Of a DNA stretch of 64,000 nt, positions 6,106 through 61,526 are shown in pieces. This stretch comes from a virus. Lineage: Duplodnaviria; Caudoviricetes. Made by a program: the position numbers and the translations under genes. The stretch covers positions 1-64,000 of the IMG/VR virus record IMGVR_UViG_3300010163_000010. One strand, written 5' to 3'. The notes under the pieces were generated by a model. That model searched no databases and was not told the DNA's origin. It saw only the letters and a program-made list of their open reading frames with translations. Each line of letters opens with the position of its first letter. Positions within the stretch are counted from its first letter, which is position 1.

Positions 6106-6870
6106 TCAGAACCCACCAACACGACGGTTATACTCTTGATCTGGATCATTATGGACTATTCTCAGTTGGCCATCGGTAATAGATCCTACCGATGTAGTGA
6201 CGTCATTACCTTCATAATATGAACTAGTATACATGGTACCACCTTGTACTGCCCATATGTATATATCTTCCGCCGGCGAGCACTATTAAGGATACCTTAA
6301 AAAATAATGTTCTGATATTATACGTCGATGGTACTACTGAAAGTCCAAGATTCGGTGGAGTAAATTGTATGTATCTAGAAACATCTGGTGGGTTCCGTAA
6401 AAATGGAACCCACCTGGATTAGACTCATCGCAAAGCCCATAGAGGCCTTGACCTATTGCAGGAATTAAACCTTCATACCACACAATATCCATACTTCTAG
6501 TTGCACCACCAAAATTATGCTTCGCCGGCGGAGCCATATTTTGGCCCTGATACAAAAACAAGTGTTATGTTTGTTGATACAGAAGGAGACAGTTTTACCA
6601 GTGTGACAGTAGACGTAATCTATGGTTATACATGTGGGTTCCGGTGCTATAATTTTGGAACCCACCATTCCAACTATTAAACCAACCACCAATAGCACCA
6701 GCGCCTGGAACATTTGAGTCATGTGCCATATTATCCCCGTATAATATAAATATGCTATAACCATCATCACTCGCCGGCGGACGTGTCACTCTATTTAATG
6801 GGCATCGAGTATACCGGTCGTATTATATGGAATACTTTTGGTCCACGCGAAGGTGATTTAGGTGGGTTCC
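6106..6870. repeat. array of six silent in-frame coding cassettes (three divergent pairs) bounded by CGCCGGCG and GGTGGGTTCC
   Basis: CGCCGGCG at 6271, 6523 and 6772. (G/T)GTGGGTTCC at 6387, 6633 and 6861. Inverse (G/A)GAACCCACC at 6108, 6405 and 6657. Inserts of 153, 108, 108, 102, 105 and 81 bp, all stop-free in frame (S/P)PA...(G/C)GF. Confidence 0.85.
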
Positions 6871-6894
6871 AACGCCCATCACAGAAAAAGAAAC

Positions 6895-6916
6895 GGCCCG
6901 GGGATATCCCCGGGCC
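6895..6916. terminator. perfect palindrome GGCCCGGGGATATCCCCGGGCC, likely intrinsic terminator of 6927-7382
   Basis: 22-bp palindrome followed by a T-rich tract on the minus strand. Confidence 0.7.
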
Positions 6917-6926
6917 ATTCCTGTTG

Positions 6927-7382
6927 CTATTTCTTCTTAAAGCGTACGCCAACGCGAAATCCGCGTCCCGGAGCCACCTCCATGACTCCACCAGCGAACT
7001 CCCTCTTGGGAACGAGTTCACCATCGGGATCCTCCAGCCGATACATCTTAGTCGGCTTGTCCCCTCCGAACCTGACACCAATGCCATCCTCGAAGTAGGG
7101 ATCCTCAAAATCCCGCCGATCATCATCGTCGTCATCGATCTGGTTATAGAGATTCTCAATCAGATCGAGCTGCCTGGTGAGGAGATCCTTCAACTCGGCC
7201 GTGTGGTTCTCCAGCGTCCTAACACGCTCTTCGAGTTCCTTCAGCCGATTCCCCTCACCATACGTCGATGTACGCTTGTTTCTGTTGTAGTTATTGGAGC
7301 TTGACCCCTGGACCGTGCTGGTGCGCTTCTCCTTGGGTTTCAGTTCGTAAAAGCCGTCGTTGTTACGGTTCTTCTTACTCAC
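6927..7382 (-). CDS. hypothetical protein with coiled coil and N-terminal DGFYELKPK motif
   Basis: 151-aa ORF with GTG start and AGGAGG RBS; early-type AT-rich motif upstream (~7488-7503). Confidence 0.7.
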   Translation of the reverse strand: MSKKNRNNDGFYELKPKEKRTSTVQGSSSNNYNRNKRTSTYGEGNRLKELEERVRTLENHTAELKDLLTRQLDLIENLYNQIDDDDDDRRDFEDPYFEDGIGVRFGGDKPTKMYRLEDPDGELVPKREFAGGVMEVAPGRGFRVGVRFKKK

Positions 7383-26400: not shown

Positions 26401-29400
26401 CATTCTGATCAGTTTTGTCTTTATTACGGCCTAAGAGTCTATCAAGAAATCCGAGTCGAGATTGCCGGCGTTCCATCCGCTCTTTGATCTTCTGCTCTTT
26501 TCTCTTTCGCCGTTCTTCCATTTTGGCTTTAAGGTTTTCTTCCCGTTCTTTTTCGCGCTGTTTCCGACGTTCACGAGCTTCAGCGCTTAACTGATCCACG
26601 CTCTTATTATCAATACCACCAGTAGTAACCAACTCCAGAGCCTTAAACGGAGCAGAGATAATGGCTCCAAGAGCTTTACCGACAGCATCAAAGATTGTAT
26701 TAAGAGCTTTCTCCAGAGGACTAAGAACTTTATCCTTAAAGAAGCGTTTCATTTTCTGACCCGGACTCTCGGGATCATCCGGATCATTGAAGATTTTCGT
26801 AATTGAGTCTTTAATATGCTGACCAATATTCTTCATGGAGTTGGAGATAGATACTCCAGCTTCAGTAAGATGATCCCGTAATGGCTGCATAGAACGTCTA
26901 AATGGTTCAACGATAGAATCATGGAACCATGTTCCAATAGACTTACCAACAGCATTGATCTTATCGCCAAGAGGCTCCATGACTTTGTGCTGCATGAAGT
27001 CAAATGCTTTACCGAATAAGCCACCCTTACGTTTCTTTACCTTCTTGCCGGTAGGCTTACCATTCTTATCTAACTCATCCTCTTCGGTCTCTTCACCCAT
27101 AAAGAACTTACGAATATCATCAGCATTAACCGCACCTGTGATACCGCCGAGCAATGCAAAGATAGGTCCACCAGGCAGCAGCGACAGCCCAGGAATAATA
27201 CCAATACCGGAAATCAGGCTCCACGCAGCTCCACCCAATGCGGCACCACCAAGAGCAGGACCAATGGAATCTTTAATGGCTTTGCGAGTCTTTGGCCCGA
27301 GAAGTGATTTCTCATTGCCTTCTGCATCAAGTTCACTTCCGAACAAAGCCTCTTTCATCTGTTCAGATGCAGAGATCATTCCACCAAGGCCACCAAGAAG
27401 AGCACCGATAAATGGACCTCCAGGAAGGAATAGACTGCCGATAATGCCAAGACCACTGCCGAGTGCAATGTTTGGGAAGTATTTCTTAAACCCGTCGTAT
27501 ACGGTCTTATCAATAAGGCCGCCCTTTCGACTGTCGACTTTTACGTGCTTATCAATCTTACCCGTCTTCCAGTCAAATACGACTCGGTCTTCATCCTTAC
27601 TCACTTCACCAAAGAGATATTCTTTAAATTTCTCAGAGGCAGATAAGAATCCACCGAAGGATCCAATAAGTGCTCCAAGAATAGGTCCACCAGGAAGGAA
27701 TAAGCTGCCAAGTATGCCAACTCCAGCACCAATGACCATATCCGGGAAAGCCTTTTTCATCTCAGTGGCCATTAGGTCAAATTTCTTCCTGGAATCATGT
27801 GTATCCTTTTCAAACTCATCATAATCCGCACGAGCGTAGTCGGGACCAAGCATCAGATCTTTAAAATCATCAGCAATATTTTTGAACAGTCCGACTAACC
27901 CATGATATTTGAACTTATAACCGCCATATATATCCTGCTCGTTATTCTCATCGTAAATATGACCTTCTGTATCATAGAGTTCCTTCTTGCGGCCACGATA
28001 CTTCTTACCTTCTTCATTGCCCCACAGAAGTTTATCCCACCAGCTGAGTTTAGCTTTATTTTCGGCTTCTGATTCCTCATCGCTTTTACGTTTGGAAGAT
28101 GAGCCGCCTTTAAGTGTCTCTTTGGCATTAGAAGTAAGTTCACGCCCTCTATGAATAATAGAGTTAATTTTATCGCTCCATTTGCCACCCTCATAGTCTT
28201 CGTAATGAGCATTCTTTACCGCATCTTCATGTACTGGTGTACCAGATTGATACCGCCATACGCCATCTTTATCTTTTATGATTGTATCTCCGGCTTCAGT
28301 AACTTTGCGATTCTTATCACGCTTACCAATTAACGACTCTTTATATCCCGTAAGTTTCTCGCTGACTGGCTTAACCACTTTCTGATTTAGCCTATCGGCA
28401 ATTTGCGGGAGTAGGCCGCTCTTCGGATCAAACATGAACTTCTTAAACGGATTGCCAATATTCTCAGCAAACCAGCTCTTAGCAGAAAGCCAGTTAGCCT
28501 TCAATGTCGCCTGAAGAGAATCAAGAATCGATGGGAGTTTATGCTTATCCAACAAGACTGCAGACGCGTCCTCACCATAAAGCACTCGGAACAGGAAGCT
28601 GTCCACAACTTTAAGACCATCCGTAACAAGATCAAATGGAACCTTACCGTACTCTCTTGTAAGTTCAGCAAGTTTCTTGAAACCGACCTTATCAAGCATT
28701 CCATTTACTTCCTTGGATAACTCTGCGGCCTTTTCGTCCATAGTACGTTTAGCGCCAGACGGTATCTGATCTTTCTCGTACTCTTGTATACGTCCGTTGT
28801 TTATAATAGGAGCACCGGTCTTTTTATCTGTAGGAGCTGTATTAGCCCTAAACTGTTTCATCGTATTACCAATACGCAGAACATCAGCACCTTCCGAACG
28901 AACGATAACAATATGACCGCCAAAGGCTTCATTATCTTTTGCTCGTTGTTCGTTATCAGAAACTTCTTTATCATGTGCTGCTCTCTTACGATTGATCTCT
29001 TGTACTTTTCGATCTTCCTGATATGAATAACGCTTCCACCCTTTATCGGAAAGTTTCTTTGCCGCTTCAATGTTAGCATTAACATTATCCGGAAGACCAT
29101 TTGTAACGATCCGTTCACCATTTTTGCCTTTAGGTTTAACAACCTTTGTCTTAGTGCTGTCTCCAAGTAAGTATGTGTAAGTGATGATTCCGCGTTCCAG
29201 CATAGTACGAATATCATTCACCATTGTATTCATCGGCAAAGGAACACCAAGCACCGTACGTCTCTCTATGTCTTTATCATGCATCTCTTGGATTTCATTA
29301 GAAGATGCTCCGCCGGCGACAGACTTAGACAACGAAATGATCTGACTCTCAATGCCTGGATCAAGCATACCCATATATGCAGCAATCTTACCGGTATCAT

Positions 29401-31228: not shown

Positions 31229-31334
31229 TCGCCGGCGGAGAGTGATAGTTTATGGGTAATCGGTGGGTTTAATGGGAACTATGAAGCGTTTGGTTATTTA
31301 TGGGAAAATATCCCTGGATGGAATGGTGGGTTCC
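31229..31334 (+). repeat. solitary silent cassette SPAESDSLWVIGGFNGNYEAFGYLWENIPGWNGGF
   Basis: TCGCCGGCGGA at 31229 and GGTGGGTTCC at 31325, with an 87-bp stop-free in-frame insert. Confidence 0.8.
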
Positions 31335-31834
31335 TATTTCTTATCCATACGACGCTGGAGAGCCAGCATGCGGTCAACAAGGCTCTTCTTATATGTGATC
31401 TTTCCAGCGTACTTGCCGGAACGTTCCATCTTACGAAGGCCAACCATAAGAAGCTTATTGCGGAATACCCGCATATTCTTACCACACTCAGTGTAGATAT
31501 ACATAGCTTCATCAATGGCATCCGATACCCACTCGATATCGTTAGGGCCATACTCAAAGGTGTCAATGATATTGGCCCGCTCGCTGGAACTAACCATACC
31601 AGCATGCTTCAGCAGCTTATCCAGGAACGCCTTCATACTGCTATTGATATCGACATCATCCGCGATAAGCTGATCGTGCTTAAGAATCCACTTCTTAGCC
31701 TTAAAGTTCTCATCGGCCAAGACTGCATATACGAGTCCCTGGAAATCGGACTTCGAAAACCTGCTGGACGGATTCTCTTTGAGATCGGCGATCATCTGCT
31801 CTACGCTCGCCGCGTACTCTTTCTTGTCATCCAT
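31334..31834 (-). CDS. hypothetical protein
   Basis: 166-aa ORF with AGGAGG RBS, last gene of the PAAR operon. Confidence 0.65.
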   Translation of the reverse strand: MDDKKEYAASVEQMIADLKENPSSRFSKSDFQGLVYAVLADENFKAKKWILKHDQLIADDVDINSSMKAFLDKLLKHAGMVSSSERANIIDTFEYGPNDIEWVSDAIDEAMYIYTECGKNMRVFRNKLLMVGLRKMERSGKYAGKITYKKSLVDRMLALQRRMDKK

Positions 31835-38318: not shown

Positions 38319-38451
38319 GGAACCCACATTCTGCACCACGATTCACGGACATCGCTGCTAGATAACCGTCTGATAGTATAAGTGATCCATTCATTAGAAT
38401 GATATATACCGCCAGTGCCTTTGGATCGTAATAACTATCTGTCGCCGGCGG
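38319..38451 (-). repeat. solitary silent cassette PPATDSYYDPKALAVYIILMNGSLILSDGYLAAMSVNRGAECGF
   Basis: CGCCGGCG at 38443 and GGAACCCACA at 38319, with a 114-bp stop-free in-frame insert. Confidence 0.75.
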
Positions 38452-38950
38452 GAGGTTCTTGCTGCCAGCAGTTGTCAGACCGATCCTCGCTGAAAGAGTT
38501 ATCTGCAGCATCATCCGGCTCAACAGGCGCACTCTCATCGAACGCACTTGTGTCTAACCAGTCGACAGGTGTGTAGAAGGAATGAACCTCTTTATCGCCC
38601 ATAACCCAGAAACCAGAGATTTCTGACCAGACAATCCACTGCCCAGGGCACACTACAAGCGGCCCAGAGACATCATCGTTGAGGATAATGTGAAGCTCAT
38701 CCAGTGCATTGTGACCATGGTCACACGCAATCTCCACATTGTCGACAGAAATCGTCTTTCCACCGGTAATGCAGCAAAAAGCATCCCCGAGCCACTCAAT
38801 CACCTGCTGCAGATTACCGGGGAAGTTTTCCTTGGTGCAAACGTACTGAATGCCAACCAGGTTTCCTTTGGGCACCAGTTTGAGAATCGACCTAAATCCC
38901 GTATCAGACTCAGGCCGCAGGTCTTTAATCCCATTCTCATCCAACTGCAT
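38435..38950 (-). CDS. hypothetical protein
   Basis: 171 aa with AAGGAG RBS; N-terminal DENGIKDLRP. Its last codons overlap the cassette site. Confidence 0.65.
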   Translation of the reverse strand: MQLDENGIKDLRPESDTGFRSILKLVPKGNLVGIQYVCTKENFPGNLQQVIEWLGDAFCCITGGKTISVDNVEIACDHGHNALDELHIILNDDVSGPLVVCPGQWIVWSEISGFWVMGDKEVHSFYTPVDWLDTSAFDESAPVEPDDAADNSFSEDRSDNCWQQEPPAGDR

Positions 38951-38971: not shown

Positions 38972-39640
38972 TCAGAACTGGTAAAGTCCATATTCCTTCA
39001 TAAAATCATTCATGTCGCCTTTATAGGTCTCAATAGAACCATTGGTCTTACAGACCACAATCTTTATCAGATACTCGTACTTGGAGAAACCCAGATAGCC
39101 ATTGGCCATGATGTCGTACACGCCACTGATCCCTTGTCGATGAAAGTTAATGAACTGGAAGAGTTCGCCGAGATTACGAATCAGCCGCTCTTCCTGCCAA
39201 ACATCAATCTTGCTTCCATTCCCATCGTCATCAACAGCAACGAGTCTGGCTCCGATTATCATCTTGTCAATATGGGCAAGCTTGAAGTAGCTTTTCACCG
39301 GAATCTTGGTGTACATCATATCACCGGTATCGACCAGAACAAATCCATTGCTCTTCTCGTGATCTCCAGTCTTCATGAGCTTCAGCTCTTTAGAAGCCGC
39401 CTTATCCTGCCCAGACTCAATTTTCAGCTCACCACAGCCGTACACATTCTTCCAAACAACGAAGTTGCTGGAATTGGTGCACTTGAACGACGAGTGACCC
39501 TTAAACCGCTTCAGCCTCTTGTAGTACCAGTACTTCCAGGAGCTCTTCTTAAACTTAGGCTGCTTCGGTTTCTTTTTCTTGAGGTTATTCGGTTTTACGG
39601 GGATGAGCGTATAGAACCCATCCCCAGTGCTTGTACTCAT
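38972..39640 (-). CDS. hypothetical basic protein
   Basis: 222 aa; N-terminal DGFYTLIPVK followed by a Lys-rich tract. Confidence 0.65.
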   Translation of the reverse strand: MSTSTGDGFYTLIPVKPNNLKKKKPKQPKFKKSSWKYWYYKRLKRFKGHSSFKCTNSSNFVVWKNVYGCGELKIESGQDKAASKELKLMKTGDHEKSNGFVLVDTGDMMYTKIPVKSYFKLAHIDKMIIGARLVAVDDDGNGSKIDVWQEERLIRNLGELFQFINFHRQGISGVYDIMANGYLGFSKYEYLIKIVVCKTNGSIETYKGDMNDFMKEYGLYQF

Positions 39641-59250: not shown

Positions 59251-59462
59251 ACGGAACCCACCGTGATGCATTGGAGTTGGAGGAGCAAATATAAAGCCAT
59301 ATATACCATGCTCATCAACTATAAAAATTTCATCAGTATCAAACCCATAGTCCTCCGCCGGCGACAATTACGGAATATAGTGCAGTTATTGCTATATGTG
59401 CAGGGATAAGTAACTATTACACATATGTAAATAACCCGCCAACTGCACCTGGTGGGTTCCGT
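59251..59462. repeat. divergent pair of silent cassettes sharing a CGCCGGCG site
   Basis: ACGGAACCCACC (59251) - 93 bp - CGCCGGCG (59356) - 87 bp - GGTGGGTTCCGT (59451); both arms are open in frame. Confidence 0.85.
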
Positions 59463-59507: not shown

Positions 59508-61526
59508 TTAGCCCACCGGAGTCTCGGTAGTCTCAACCGGTACCAGTACCAGCTGGCCAACCTGGGGATCGGTGACGTCGGACAGGCTGTTCACAATCAG
59601 AGGCACACGCAGTGCCAGCTCGTTGAACGTAGTCTGATCGACGTAAGTGCTGTCCAGCTCGGCCAGCGTCTTGCCGCCAACACTGGTAGCATCACCGGCG
59701 ATATTCACATGCAGCTTTTCGTCGTCGGCAATCTTGACGATCTTGCCAGCCACGTCGGTGTTGCTGTCGCTGGGAATGCCGTCATCGGTCAGCAGGTCGC
59801 CGCCGATAGCATCAGTGATACCGTAGCCAGCCAGAGTAGTCGGAGTATTGTCGATGCTGCTCCAGTCGACGTATTTGCCGGTCTTCAGGTATACGGTTGC
59901 ATACTCGGTAACGGCGCCGTCGGGAGTGTCAGGATCAGTCTTGGTAACAATCCATACACCATGGACCTGGCCGGCATTAGCAGGATCATACTCGATGACC
60001 ACATCACCCGGGTTGACCATGGTGTTCGTAACCCAGGTAGAGGGAGCATCGGTAGTCTCCTTGGTAACAGCCTTGGTGATATCGGAGGAGAGGTTGTCCT
60101 TGGAGATGATGCCCTTCAGCTTGCTGACATCAAGCTCCGTGATGCCGCTGCCGCCCTTGAGCGCAGCAATGTCACCCAGAACCGTATCGGCTGTATCGGC
60201 ATCGCCCAGAGTAGTCTGAATATTGGTGACCTTCTCAACCAGGCCGGCAACCGCTGCGGTGCCTGTATCAGGATCAGCCGGCTTGCCGTTCAGAATCTGG
60301 TCGATCGCGGTCTTGTGCTCATCAAACGTGGTGCTGTCGACGGCATCGGTAATACCATAGCCGACCAGAGTAGTGGGCTTATTGGTAACGCCGGACCACG
60401 CAACAGCGGAGGCCTCGCCGGCGGTATAGGGCAGGTACGCATCTTTCCAGTCGGAGGTACCAAGCTTGGTCTCGTCGACCACATAGTACATCATACCGGC
60501 CTTGGTGATATTGCCCTCGCCGTCGGTCTCATCAGCGATCTTAACAGTATCACCCTTCTGTACCTGAGTAGTGGTCAGGCCAGCCAGATCGGCCTCAGAT
60601 GTGATGACATGCATCTCAGACAGGGCCGCCTTGGGCACAACGGCCACGTCAAGGATGCCGGTCTTGATCCAGGAGGCGTCAGAATTCTTCAGGTCGTTCT
60701 GGAGGGTGGCGATATCCTTCTTGATAGTGCCGTCTGTGTCGGCATCGCCGATAGTGTCATTGATAGCATCGATATCAGTCTTCAGCGCCAGGTCAGCCAG
60801 CTTCTTGCCGCCGACAGAGCCAGCGTCGCCGGTGATATCGAAGTCCAGTTTGCCGTCGGCATTGGTCTGGGTAATCTTACCAGCCGCAGTCCAGTCCTCG
60901 GCGTCGCCGGCATTCTTGGCACCATGATCAACGATGGAGGCGGAGCCAACCGCATCGGTGATGCCATAACCGGCCAGAGTAGTCGGAGTATTGACGATAC
61001 GATCCCACTTAACGTCAGAGGCAGCATCAGTCAGCGCGGCAAACTCCACTGTGGGAGGGTCACCCTCGGCAGCACCGGCAGTGACATTCTTGACCACATG
61101 GGTGGATACGACATTGCCCTCGCTGTCTTTGATCTGAACGATGTCGCCGATGTGCACGGAGGCCTTGTCCACAGCATCCAGAGAGGCAGCATCGACCACC
61201 TTACCGCCCACATCGTCAGGCAGGTTGCTGCGATCGATTACGCCGGTGATCTTGGACGCCTCAACCTCGGTAACACCGGAGCCGTCCTCCAGCTTCGGCA
61301 GAACCTCATGGTCGATTGTGGCAACGCGGTTGATGAGGGAAATCAGCAGATCGGAGACGTTATCGCCGGCCTCAAGAACGGTACCGAAGCCGAACGGTTT
61401 GGTCTCGAGCTTTTCGATAGTGGAGGCTTTGCCCAGGCCCACGATGTCCGCAGACGTGCCGAGATAGATAGAGTCCCAATCGGTGCCATTGAATCGCCGA
61501 ATCGTAGATTTCAGAATAGTAGCCAT
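59508..61526 (-). CDS. tail fibre-like protein with PTTL(A/V)GYGITDA repeats
   Basis: Three W..(I/V).N.PTTL.GYGITDA repeats typical of phage fibres; strong codon bias. Confidence 0.75.
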   Translation of the reverse strand: MATILKSTIRRFNGTDWDSIYLGTSADIVGLGKASTIEKLETKPFGFGTVLEAGDNVSDLLISLINRVATIDHEVLPKLEDGSGVTEVEASKITGVIDRSNLPDDVGGKVVDAASLDAVDKASVHIGDIVQIKDSEGNVVSTHVVKNVTAGAAEGDPPTVEFAALTDAASDVKWDRIVNTPTTLAGYGITDAVGSASIVDHGAKNAGDAEDWTAAGKITQTNADGKLDFDITGDAGSVGGKKLADLALKTDIDAINDTIGDADTDGTIKKDIATLQNDLKNSDASWIKTGILDVAVVPKAALSEMHVITSEADLAGLTTTQVQKGDTVKIADETDGEGNITKAGMMYYVVDETKLGTSDWKDAYLPYTAGEASAVAWSGVTNKPTTLVGYGITDAVDSTTFDEHKTAIDQILNGKPADPDTGTAAVAGLVEKVTNIQTTLGDADTADTVLGDIAALKGGSGITELDVSKLKGIISKDNLSSDITKAVTKETTDAPSTWVTNTMVNPGDVVIEYDPANAGQVHGVWIVTKTDPDTPDGAVTEYATVYLKTGKYVDWSSIDNTPTTLAGYGITDAIGGDLLTDDGIPSDSNTDVAGKIVKIADDEKLHVNIAGDATSVGGKTLAELDSTYVDQTTFNELALRVPLIVNSLSDVTDPQVGQLVLVPVETTETPVG

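Follow-up and report, generated by a model that had tools for sequence, protein, structure and literature searches.

What are reading frames doing in a phage genome that leave a shared palindrome back to back, one on each strand, and end in frame at the same short word? The question is raised by positions 6106–6870 of the window, by which we mean the whole stretch of DNA presented for analysis (64,000 nt; positions 1 to 64,000 of the virus record IMGVR_UViG_3300010163_000010). An earlier note on this DNA had read the frames as unexpressed donor segments that are swapped into an expressed gene via two conserved sites, with Borrelia vls, Neisseria pilS or a shufflon as the nearest analogies. The present analysis covers the entire record, a linear virus contig of 105 kb that is 41% complete, together with relatives of the phage.

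The contig encodes a phiKZ-type RNA polymerase subunit whose closest annotated relatives are PBS1, SA1 and LPJP1 at ~30%. Judged from its sequence, the source is a PBS1/AR9-like jumbo phage, for which the labels of relatives suggest a gut, Clostridia-infecting habit. It is a member of a large family, in which the longest contigs measure ~230–290 kb; relatives above ~58–62% identity were not found, the best full-length virion-protein matches being ~58%. The contig spans 35–151 kb of the syntenic relative G001 (231 kb). Two side observations on gene content may be recorded here: the jumbo phage family has a conserved serine recombinase whose C-terminal tail is long (G001 L022:11319-12257; G004 L213), and a D-x-D-G-F-x-x-L motif occurs in window genes such as 38972–39640 and in the RT/Avd tails of relatives.

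Cassettes and boundary words

Each cassette extends from an invariant 10-mer, TCGCCGGCGG in either orientation, through to GTGGGTTC. The array at 6106–6870 comprises three units in which two frames run outward, back to back, from a central palindrome and end at GTGGGTTC. Coordinates, translations and insert lengths of the six array cassettes proved to be as claimed in the earlier note, and the four further copies reported for the window are present (Table 1). Two more lie beyond it (contig 73195–73308 and 89049–89153, both on the minus strand), so that the 105-kb contig holds 12 cassettes in total, 10 of them within the window, scattered over at least 83 kb and both strands. Four cassettes are singles with one arm only, and the pair unit at 59254–59459 has 12-bp inverted ends.

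Table 1. Cassettes, shared sites and neighbouring hairpin, in window coordinates
Position	Strand	Feature
6109..6279	-	cassette 1 (57 codons, S-type start), array unit 1
6270..6395	+	cassette 2 (42 codons, P-type start), array unit 1
6406..6531	-	cassette 3 (42 codons, P-type), array unit 2
6522..6641	+	cassette 4 (40 codons, S-type), array unit 2
6658..6780	-	cassette 5 (41 codons, P-type), array unit 3
6771..6869	+	cassette 6 (33 codons, S-type), array unit 3
6270..6279		5' site common to cassettes 1 and 2, 10-mer with palindromic core
6522..6531		5' site common to cassettes 3 and 4
6771..6780		5' site common to cassettes 5 and 6
6387..6414		3' sites of cassettes 2/3, tail to tail, forming a 10-bp inverted repeat with an 8-nt loop
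6634..6665		tail-to-tail 3' sites of cassettes 4/5
6889..6922	-	terminator-like hairpin of gene 6927–7382, separating the array from that transcript
31229..31333	+	single cassette (35 codons, S-type), antisense; flanked by the stop of gene 31334–31834 and by a terminator-like hairpin
38320..38451	-	single cassette (44 codons, P-type)
59254..59364	-	cassette (37 codons, S-type), one arm of a back-to-back pair flanked by two fibre-like genes
59355..59459	+	cassette (35 codons, P-type), partner of the 59254..59364 cassette

The site definitions required some revision. Palindromic core and end site are real; the 5' site proved to be an asymmetric 10-mer (TCGCCGGCGG or its complement CCGCCGGCGA) that is present in full at 8/8 loci, singles included, and the base preceding the end site may be A in addition to G or T. 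Depending on the orientation of the 10-mer, six cassettes read Ser-Pro-Ala (S-type) and six Pro-Pro-Ala (P-type). At the other boundary, the end site is extended by C in 11/12 and by CG in 6/12 cassettes.

The two words are far too frequent for chance: the CGCCGGCG core occurs 12 times in the window versus 0.36 expected and GTGGGTTC 10 times versus 1.44 expected, counts that were reached by no shuffle. Contig-wide there are 14 cores and 12 end sites; every one of the 12 GTGGGTTC sites closes a cassette, and six other CGCCGGCG copies lack an end site. The inserts, 81–153 bp in length, are multiples of three in 12/12 cases (joint chance 1.9e-6) and free of stops in 12/12 cases (joint chance 1.5e-14, by shuffling), stops being present in the other frames, which extends the corresponding claim for the ten window copies to the whole contig. 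Since the two cassettes at 73 and 89 kb lie outside the window, their in-frame and stop-free state amounts to a fresh, out-of-sample test of the cassette rule. As a control, 31 chance core-to-end matches were taken from public collections; five were in frame, and two of these five were stop-free.

Beyond the sites, the cassette interiors share no DNA similarity with one another, in agreement with the little similarity noted earlier. Decayed copies (up to two mismatches in the 5' site and one in the 3' site) were not detected in the contig. Scans for the site pair in viral, metagenome and genome collections, which may not include this genome or very near ones, returned GC-rich chance matches only, and a scan for CGGCGATG arrays gave an output dominated by collagen-like repeats. 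A cassette profile found no match among 1.84 billion representatives, in a search that recovers exact copies of 6/10 cassettes and covers cluster representatives only, and the ESM Atlas yielded no usable match. Random-length or stop-containing copies, mini-genes and RNA elements, named in the earlier note as outcomes that would speak against a donor library, did not emerge on testing. The cassette library is real and highly non-random, and it is very probably functional.

Some further details of the layout are given for completeness. The three plus-strand cassettes of the array (6109–6869) share one frame, as do the three minus-strand cassettes, for which the chance is ~1 in 9; the array cores are spaced by 252 and 249. 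The end site, downstream flank and terminator hairpin at window 6862–6929 are 85% identical over 74 bp to contig 73130–73202, a likeness between the right end of the array and the flank of the 73-kb cassette that suggests a duplication or a shared insertion target. At 38435–38451, the 5' site of the 38-kb cassette overlaps the last codons of gene 38435–38950 on the same strand, but in another frame.

Silent and coding character of the cassettes

That the cassettes represent silent, protein-coding donor segments is well supported. In line with the earlier statement that the 5' boundary carries no shared start or ribosome binding site, an in-frame start with RBS was found at 0/12 cassettes; seven of the 12 contain no in-frame start whatsoever, and the next stop follows 0 to 167 codons beyond the end site. 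The cassettes are codon-periodic. Their third-position GC is ~27% versus ~51% in phage genes, and TTT is used 13 times versus TTC once, a codon use that differs from that of the phage genes and hints at a foreign origin, with loops perhaps captured from AT-richer sources. The boundary codons are constant throughout, even though the phage uses GCG and GGG rather rarely, as minor codons (15% and 12%), confirming what had been noted about their invariance and indicating that the constraint acts on DNA or RNA.

RNA folding of single cassettes is no better than that of shuffles (mean z −0.06). Paired units fold as panhandles with inverted ends of 9–12 bp, and inverted-end scores stand out in two of the four paired units (z −3.8 and −3.0). 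Rfam gave no match for the cassettes and Pfam none for their interiors; target duplications around cassettes were not seen.

The adenine content was considered as well. AAC accounts for 5/407 cassette codons, the interiors contain ~30% A, and codons convertible to stops by A-mutagenesis number 9/407 versus ~33 expected. This scarcity of A-to-stop codons, along with the lack of Lys, may reflect surface-loop composition, as Gln, Arg and Leu are low too. A is absent from the 3' word and from the S-type 5' word; half of the cassettes read A in the 5' site.

The variable lectin slot of the family

In the two near-complete relatives, avd-TR-RT and a DUF6273 target occupy a locus that the contig does not cover. 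In G001 this is a classical DGR with avd, template, RT and a 375-aa fibre with DUF6273 tip, and the overlapping ends of the G001 assembly (L022:1-302 and the end of L033) differ in their allele of the variable region, which directly indicates that the DGR is active. A search with the G001 RT delineated a clade of some 70 enzymes. Ten family RT loci were read, including those of long-branch and YADD/YMDN enzymes; all ten are classical DGRs, and none has a library-type acceptor. GGGTTCC ends 6/10 family templates, the other four being one base off, with the frame G-F-R-P, and it ends 0/69 templates of other DGRs. The family's variable regions, 27–33 residues long, start with S-P or T-A and end with G-F-R-P; in G006, template and targets are bounded by S-P and G-G-F-R-P, and GTGGGTTCCG occurs in two of the targets. 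One family target was modelled as a C-type lectin (pLDDT 90) with Z scores of 8.5 to 4EPS and 7.9 to TvpA in a wide alignment search; Foldseek gave weak lectin matches only. In the model, the variable region runs from just past W-T-S via a loop and a beta-hairpin to G-F-R-P. DUF6273 has been reported as a C-type lectin with such a variable slot (PMC10743442).

Two side observations concern the family DGRs themselves. One clade of RTs has YMDN in place of YMDD (P0304-P0308, P0311), and its locus L208:9044-10360 still holds a template-target pair with adenine changes. The 288-kb genome G006 (C1:103000-133500, 243479-244333; L311, L312, L318) combines one DGR template with about eight lectin-tipped paralogues, one of which, a putative target, lies >100 kb from the RT; remote DGR targets are not expected in phages (PMC5758913).

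It is to this slot that the cassettes were shown to correspond, by their ends, their 3' word and a hairpin strand. They run from S/P-P-A to G-F in 12/12 cases, with Arg next in 6/12, and carry the 3' word GGGTTC in 12/12 and GGGTTCC in 11/12, word and frame being those of the family templates. A strand-plus-Gly motif seen in 43/50 family variable regions is present in 10/12 cassettes versus 2.5 in shuffles (p<2e-4), a motif derived from the family but picked after the cassettes had been inspected; two cassettes lack it. Cassette 4 alone folds as a beta-hairpin (strands 11–18 and 25–32, pLDDT ~81 there). Scored against a position-specific profile of family variable regions, the interiors gave a sum below the shuffled mean (p=0.77), and the cassettes, with 33–57 residues and variable length, are longer than family variable regions. 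With 5 AAC codons in 407, they are not classical templates, nor are they products of one template. What they probably constitute is a silent library of whole binding loops for one DUF6273-tipped receptor-binding gene.

The predicted acceptor and the distribution of the library

Of the earlier donor-swap reading, the part concerning silent coding donors has held up (frame, stops, periodicity, no RBS), whereas an expressed gene with both sites is not found in the 41% contig. In this sequenced part, the 105-kb contig, acceptor gene, RT and Avd were all searched for and not found; nor does the contig contain a resolvase, integrase or other recombinase. Acceptor and swapping escape observation because the genome is incomplete, the contig being without the locus at which relatives keep that gene; no sequencing run was listed either. 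Two candidates were tried and rejected: the 672-aa fibre gene carries the 10-mer (60415–60424) out of the cassette frame and without an end site, and the 4552-aa gene carries it (29310–29319) likewise without an end site. No protein of the contig or of G001 has a suitable Pro-Ala...Gly-Phe motif.

A generic detector of recurring in-frame word pairs, which picks up this library at once in its own contig, found nothing comparable in G001 (231 kb), G004, G005 and G006 (288 kb). Among the genomes read, the library is therefore confined to this lineage.

Proposed copying mechanism and rival explanations

How might such a library be used? A cassette would be equivalent to the Ser-Pro to Gly-Phe(-Arg) stretch of the lectin tip (loop, beta-hairpin, loop), and a single expressed lectin-tipped fibre gene with both words is predicted to reside in the missing 59% of the genome. 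One cassette at a time would be copied into this gene, with the 8–10 bases shared at each end as joining points. Since a junction in the palindromic core yields Pro-Ala in either orientation, one site can serve two donors, and the core may thereby enable a single 5' site to feed two back-to-back cassettes. Copying could be accomplished by DGR-derived machinery, with RT/Avd making a cassette cDNA that is homed via short terminal identity, with little adenine mutagenesis. For BPP-1, an identity of at least 8 bp is enough for 5' cDNA integration, and homing is possible for heterologous sequence too (PMC3240598). The RT step is suggested by this 8-bp homing, by cassette ends that are those of DGR templates, by RT and Avd at the expected locus in both near-complete relatives, by a 3' word and an S-type 5' word without A, and by the few A-to-stop codons. 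The lack of AAC runs, interiors with ~30% A and the A in half of the 5' sites speak against it, as does the antisense or behind-terminator position of several cassettes; moreover, the cassettes have no common sequence downstream of the 3' word, as priming RNA would need, and the contig has no homologue of the family TR spacer. We advance the statement as a whole, a silent loop library copied by DGR-derived homing with the RT step included, tentatively and at close to evenly balanced confidence. We lean somewhat against its most radical form, possible as it is, according to which the system would be an inside-out DGR with dozens of unrelated, dispersed whole-loop templates, any of which a repurposed RT copies via 8–10 bases.

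The same library could serve the same lectin slot by exchange at the DNA level, with a site-specific recombinase or strand-annealing/RecA-like gene conversion acting at the 10-mer and 9-mer, by double crossover or by copying, and the DGR replaced. The 10-mer is invariant at 8/8 loci, including bases that no codon needs and the cassette-free side; its palindromic core is common to opposite-strand donors, paired units have inverted ends, and transcription of the donors would be unnecessary. Donors lie on both strands and often behind terminators, and AAC runs and a shared priming sequence are missing. A serine recombinase is conserved in relatives within the part missing here, but it is also present in relatives without cassettes, and no tyrosine integrase was found. 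Conserved sites of 9–10 bp are short for serine/tyrosine recombinases and for RecA-type pairing. DNA-level exchange by itself leaves the identity of the 3' word with the family's DGR homing end unexplained. The evidence on the enzyme is split, and we consider this mechanism somewhat less likely than DGR-derived homing.

There is a small probability that the cassettes are relics, i.e. captured or mis-inserted loop fragments that once were coding and no longer act as donors. Their codon use unlike that of phage genes, the insertion-like position of several singles beside terminator hairpins or overlapping a gene end, and four relatives without cassettes would fit this notion; against it, 12/12 cassettes are in frame with perfect sites and no decayed copy was found within the mismatches allowed, although a very recent capture would look alike. 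Hardly probable, too, is a donor library for some other Pro-Ala...Gly-Phe loop protein than the DUF6273 tip: the interiors indeed lack a profile match to family variable regions or Pfam, and two cassettes are without the strand motif, but contig and G001 proteins offer no suitable motif, and 3' word and frame are family-specific. That the cassettes are mini-genes in their own right, structured RNAs or mobile units of MITE type with inverted ends is very improbable, as the paired units with their 9–12 bp inverted ends and panhandle folds are outweighed by the missing RBS-bearing start, stops at 0–167 codons past the end site, individual cassettes that fold like shuffles, the lack of an Rfam match, four singles with one arm only, the lack of target duplications, and a frame and stop constraint between two words that none of the three explains.

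Comparison with known systems

A silent library of binding loops has to be set against several known systems, of which the DGR is the closest: a DGR target fed by many unrelated donors fits the data better than the vls/pilS or shufflon analogy proposed earlier. The cassettes have the slot boundaries, 3' word, frame and hairpin anatomy of DGRs with DUF6273 targets (BPP-1 mtd-avd-TR-brt; the gut-phage tentaclins, tgt2, PMC10743442; the family DGRs), and short terminal identities are alike; the target is likely of the same kind. In a DGR, one AAC-rich template is near-identical to one or more targets, with only adenines changed (PMC5758913). Here, in contrast, at least 12 unrelated A-rich donors of varied length occur on both strands without common template ancestry, and neither spacer RNA nor RT adjoins them in the sequenced 41%, the missing part being where relatives keep these. 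Template-target near-identity, readily found as TR/VR pairs in relatives, is missing from the cassettes; they do have a conserved, GC-rich homing end at the 3' side, in frame with the C-terminal strand of the lectin.

Borrelia vlsE/vls, Neisseria pilE/pilS and Anaplasma msp2 keep promoterless, start-less in-frame donors for one surface gene; these donors are paralogues with long mutual homology that are used by segmental gene conversion. Silent in-frame donors without a start of their own are common to both, but the present cassettes share only 10 + 9 bases, are arranged back to back on a palindrome and reside in a virus. In shufflons and fibre inversions (R64 Rci/sfx, Mu Gin, P1 Cin, p15B Min), whole C-termini are swapped via one site at a compact locus with the recombinase adjoining. 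Opposite-strand alternatives, short recurrent in-frame sites and a receptor-binding target are reminiscent of such systems; the cassettes differ in being internal and dispersed across at least 83 kb, with two different sites and without stops of their own, in a contig without integrase or resolvase. For T-even gp38 adhesins, hypervariable segments between glycine-rich motifs are described (PMC3157838), and variable loops between conserved motifs of a phage adhesin are a shared trait. We know of no stored silent copies for gp38, which varies by exchange between phages.

A silent loop library in phages was not found described in the literature, of which coverage was incomplete. The locus works like silent-cassette antigenic variation on a DGR-type target, yet it departs from DGR, vls/pilS and shufflon in the very features by which each of them is defined. 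Its own contribution lies in the palindromic, back-to-back layout and in a 3' word that is tied, specifically in this family, to the homing end of the DGR.

Implications

DNA editing and display scaffolds are two fields in which an enzyme that joins segments via two words of 9–10 bases would be of interest. Should the RT reading be true, the locus would represent natural multi-template retro-editing, which would be categorically new, and, to our knowledge, the first known viral counterpart of silent-cassette antigenic variation. Phages are known to alter host recognition by point mutation, DGR hypermutation, fibre-end inversion and inter-phage exchange. A genome-wide repertoire of pre-selected loops, changes in loop length included, would be a different strategy, in which each swap would bring in a folded loop that had probably been useful before, not a random one. 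It would also show how a library can take over a DGR target.
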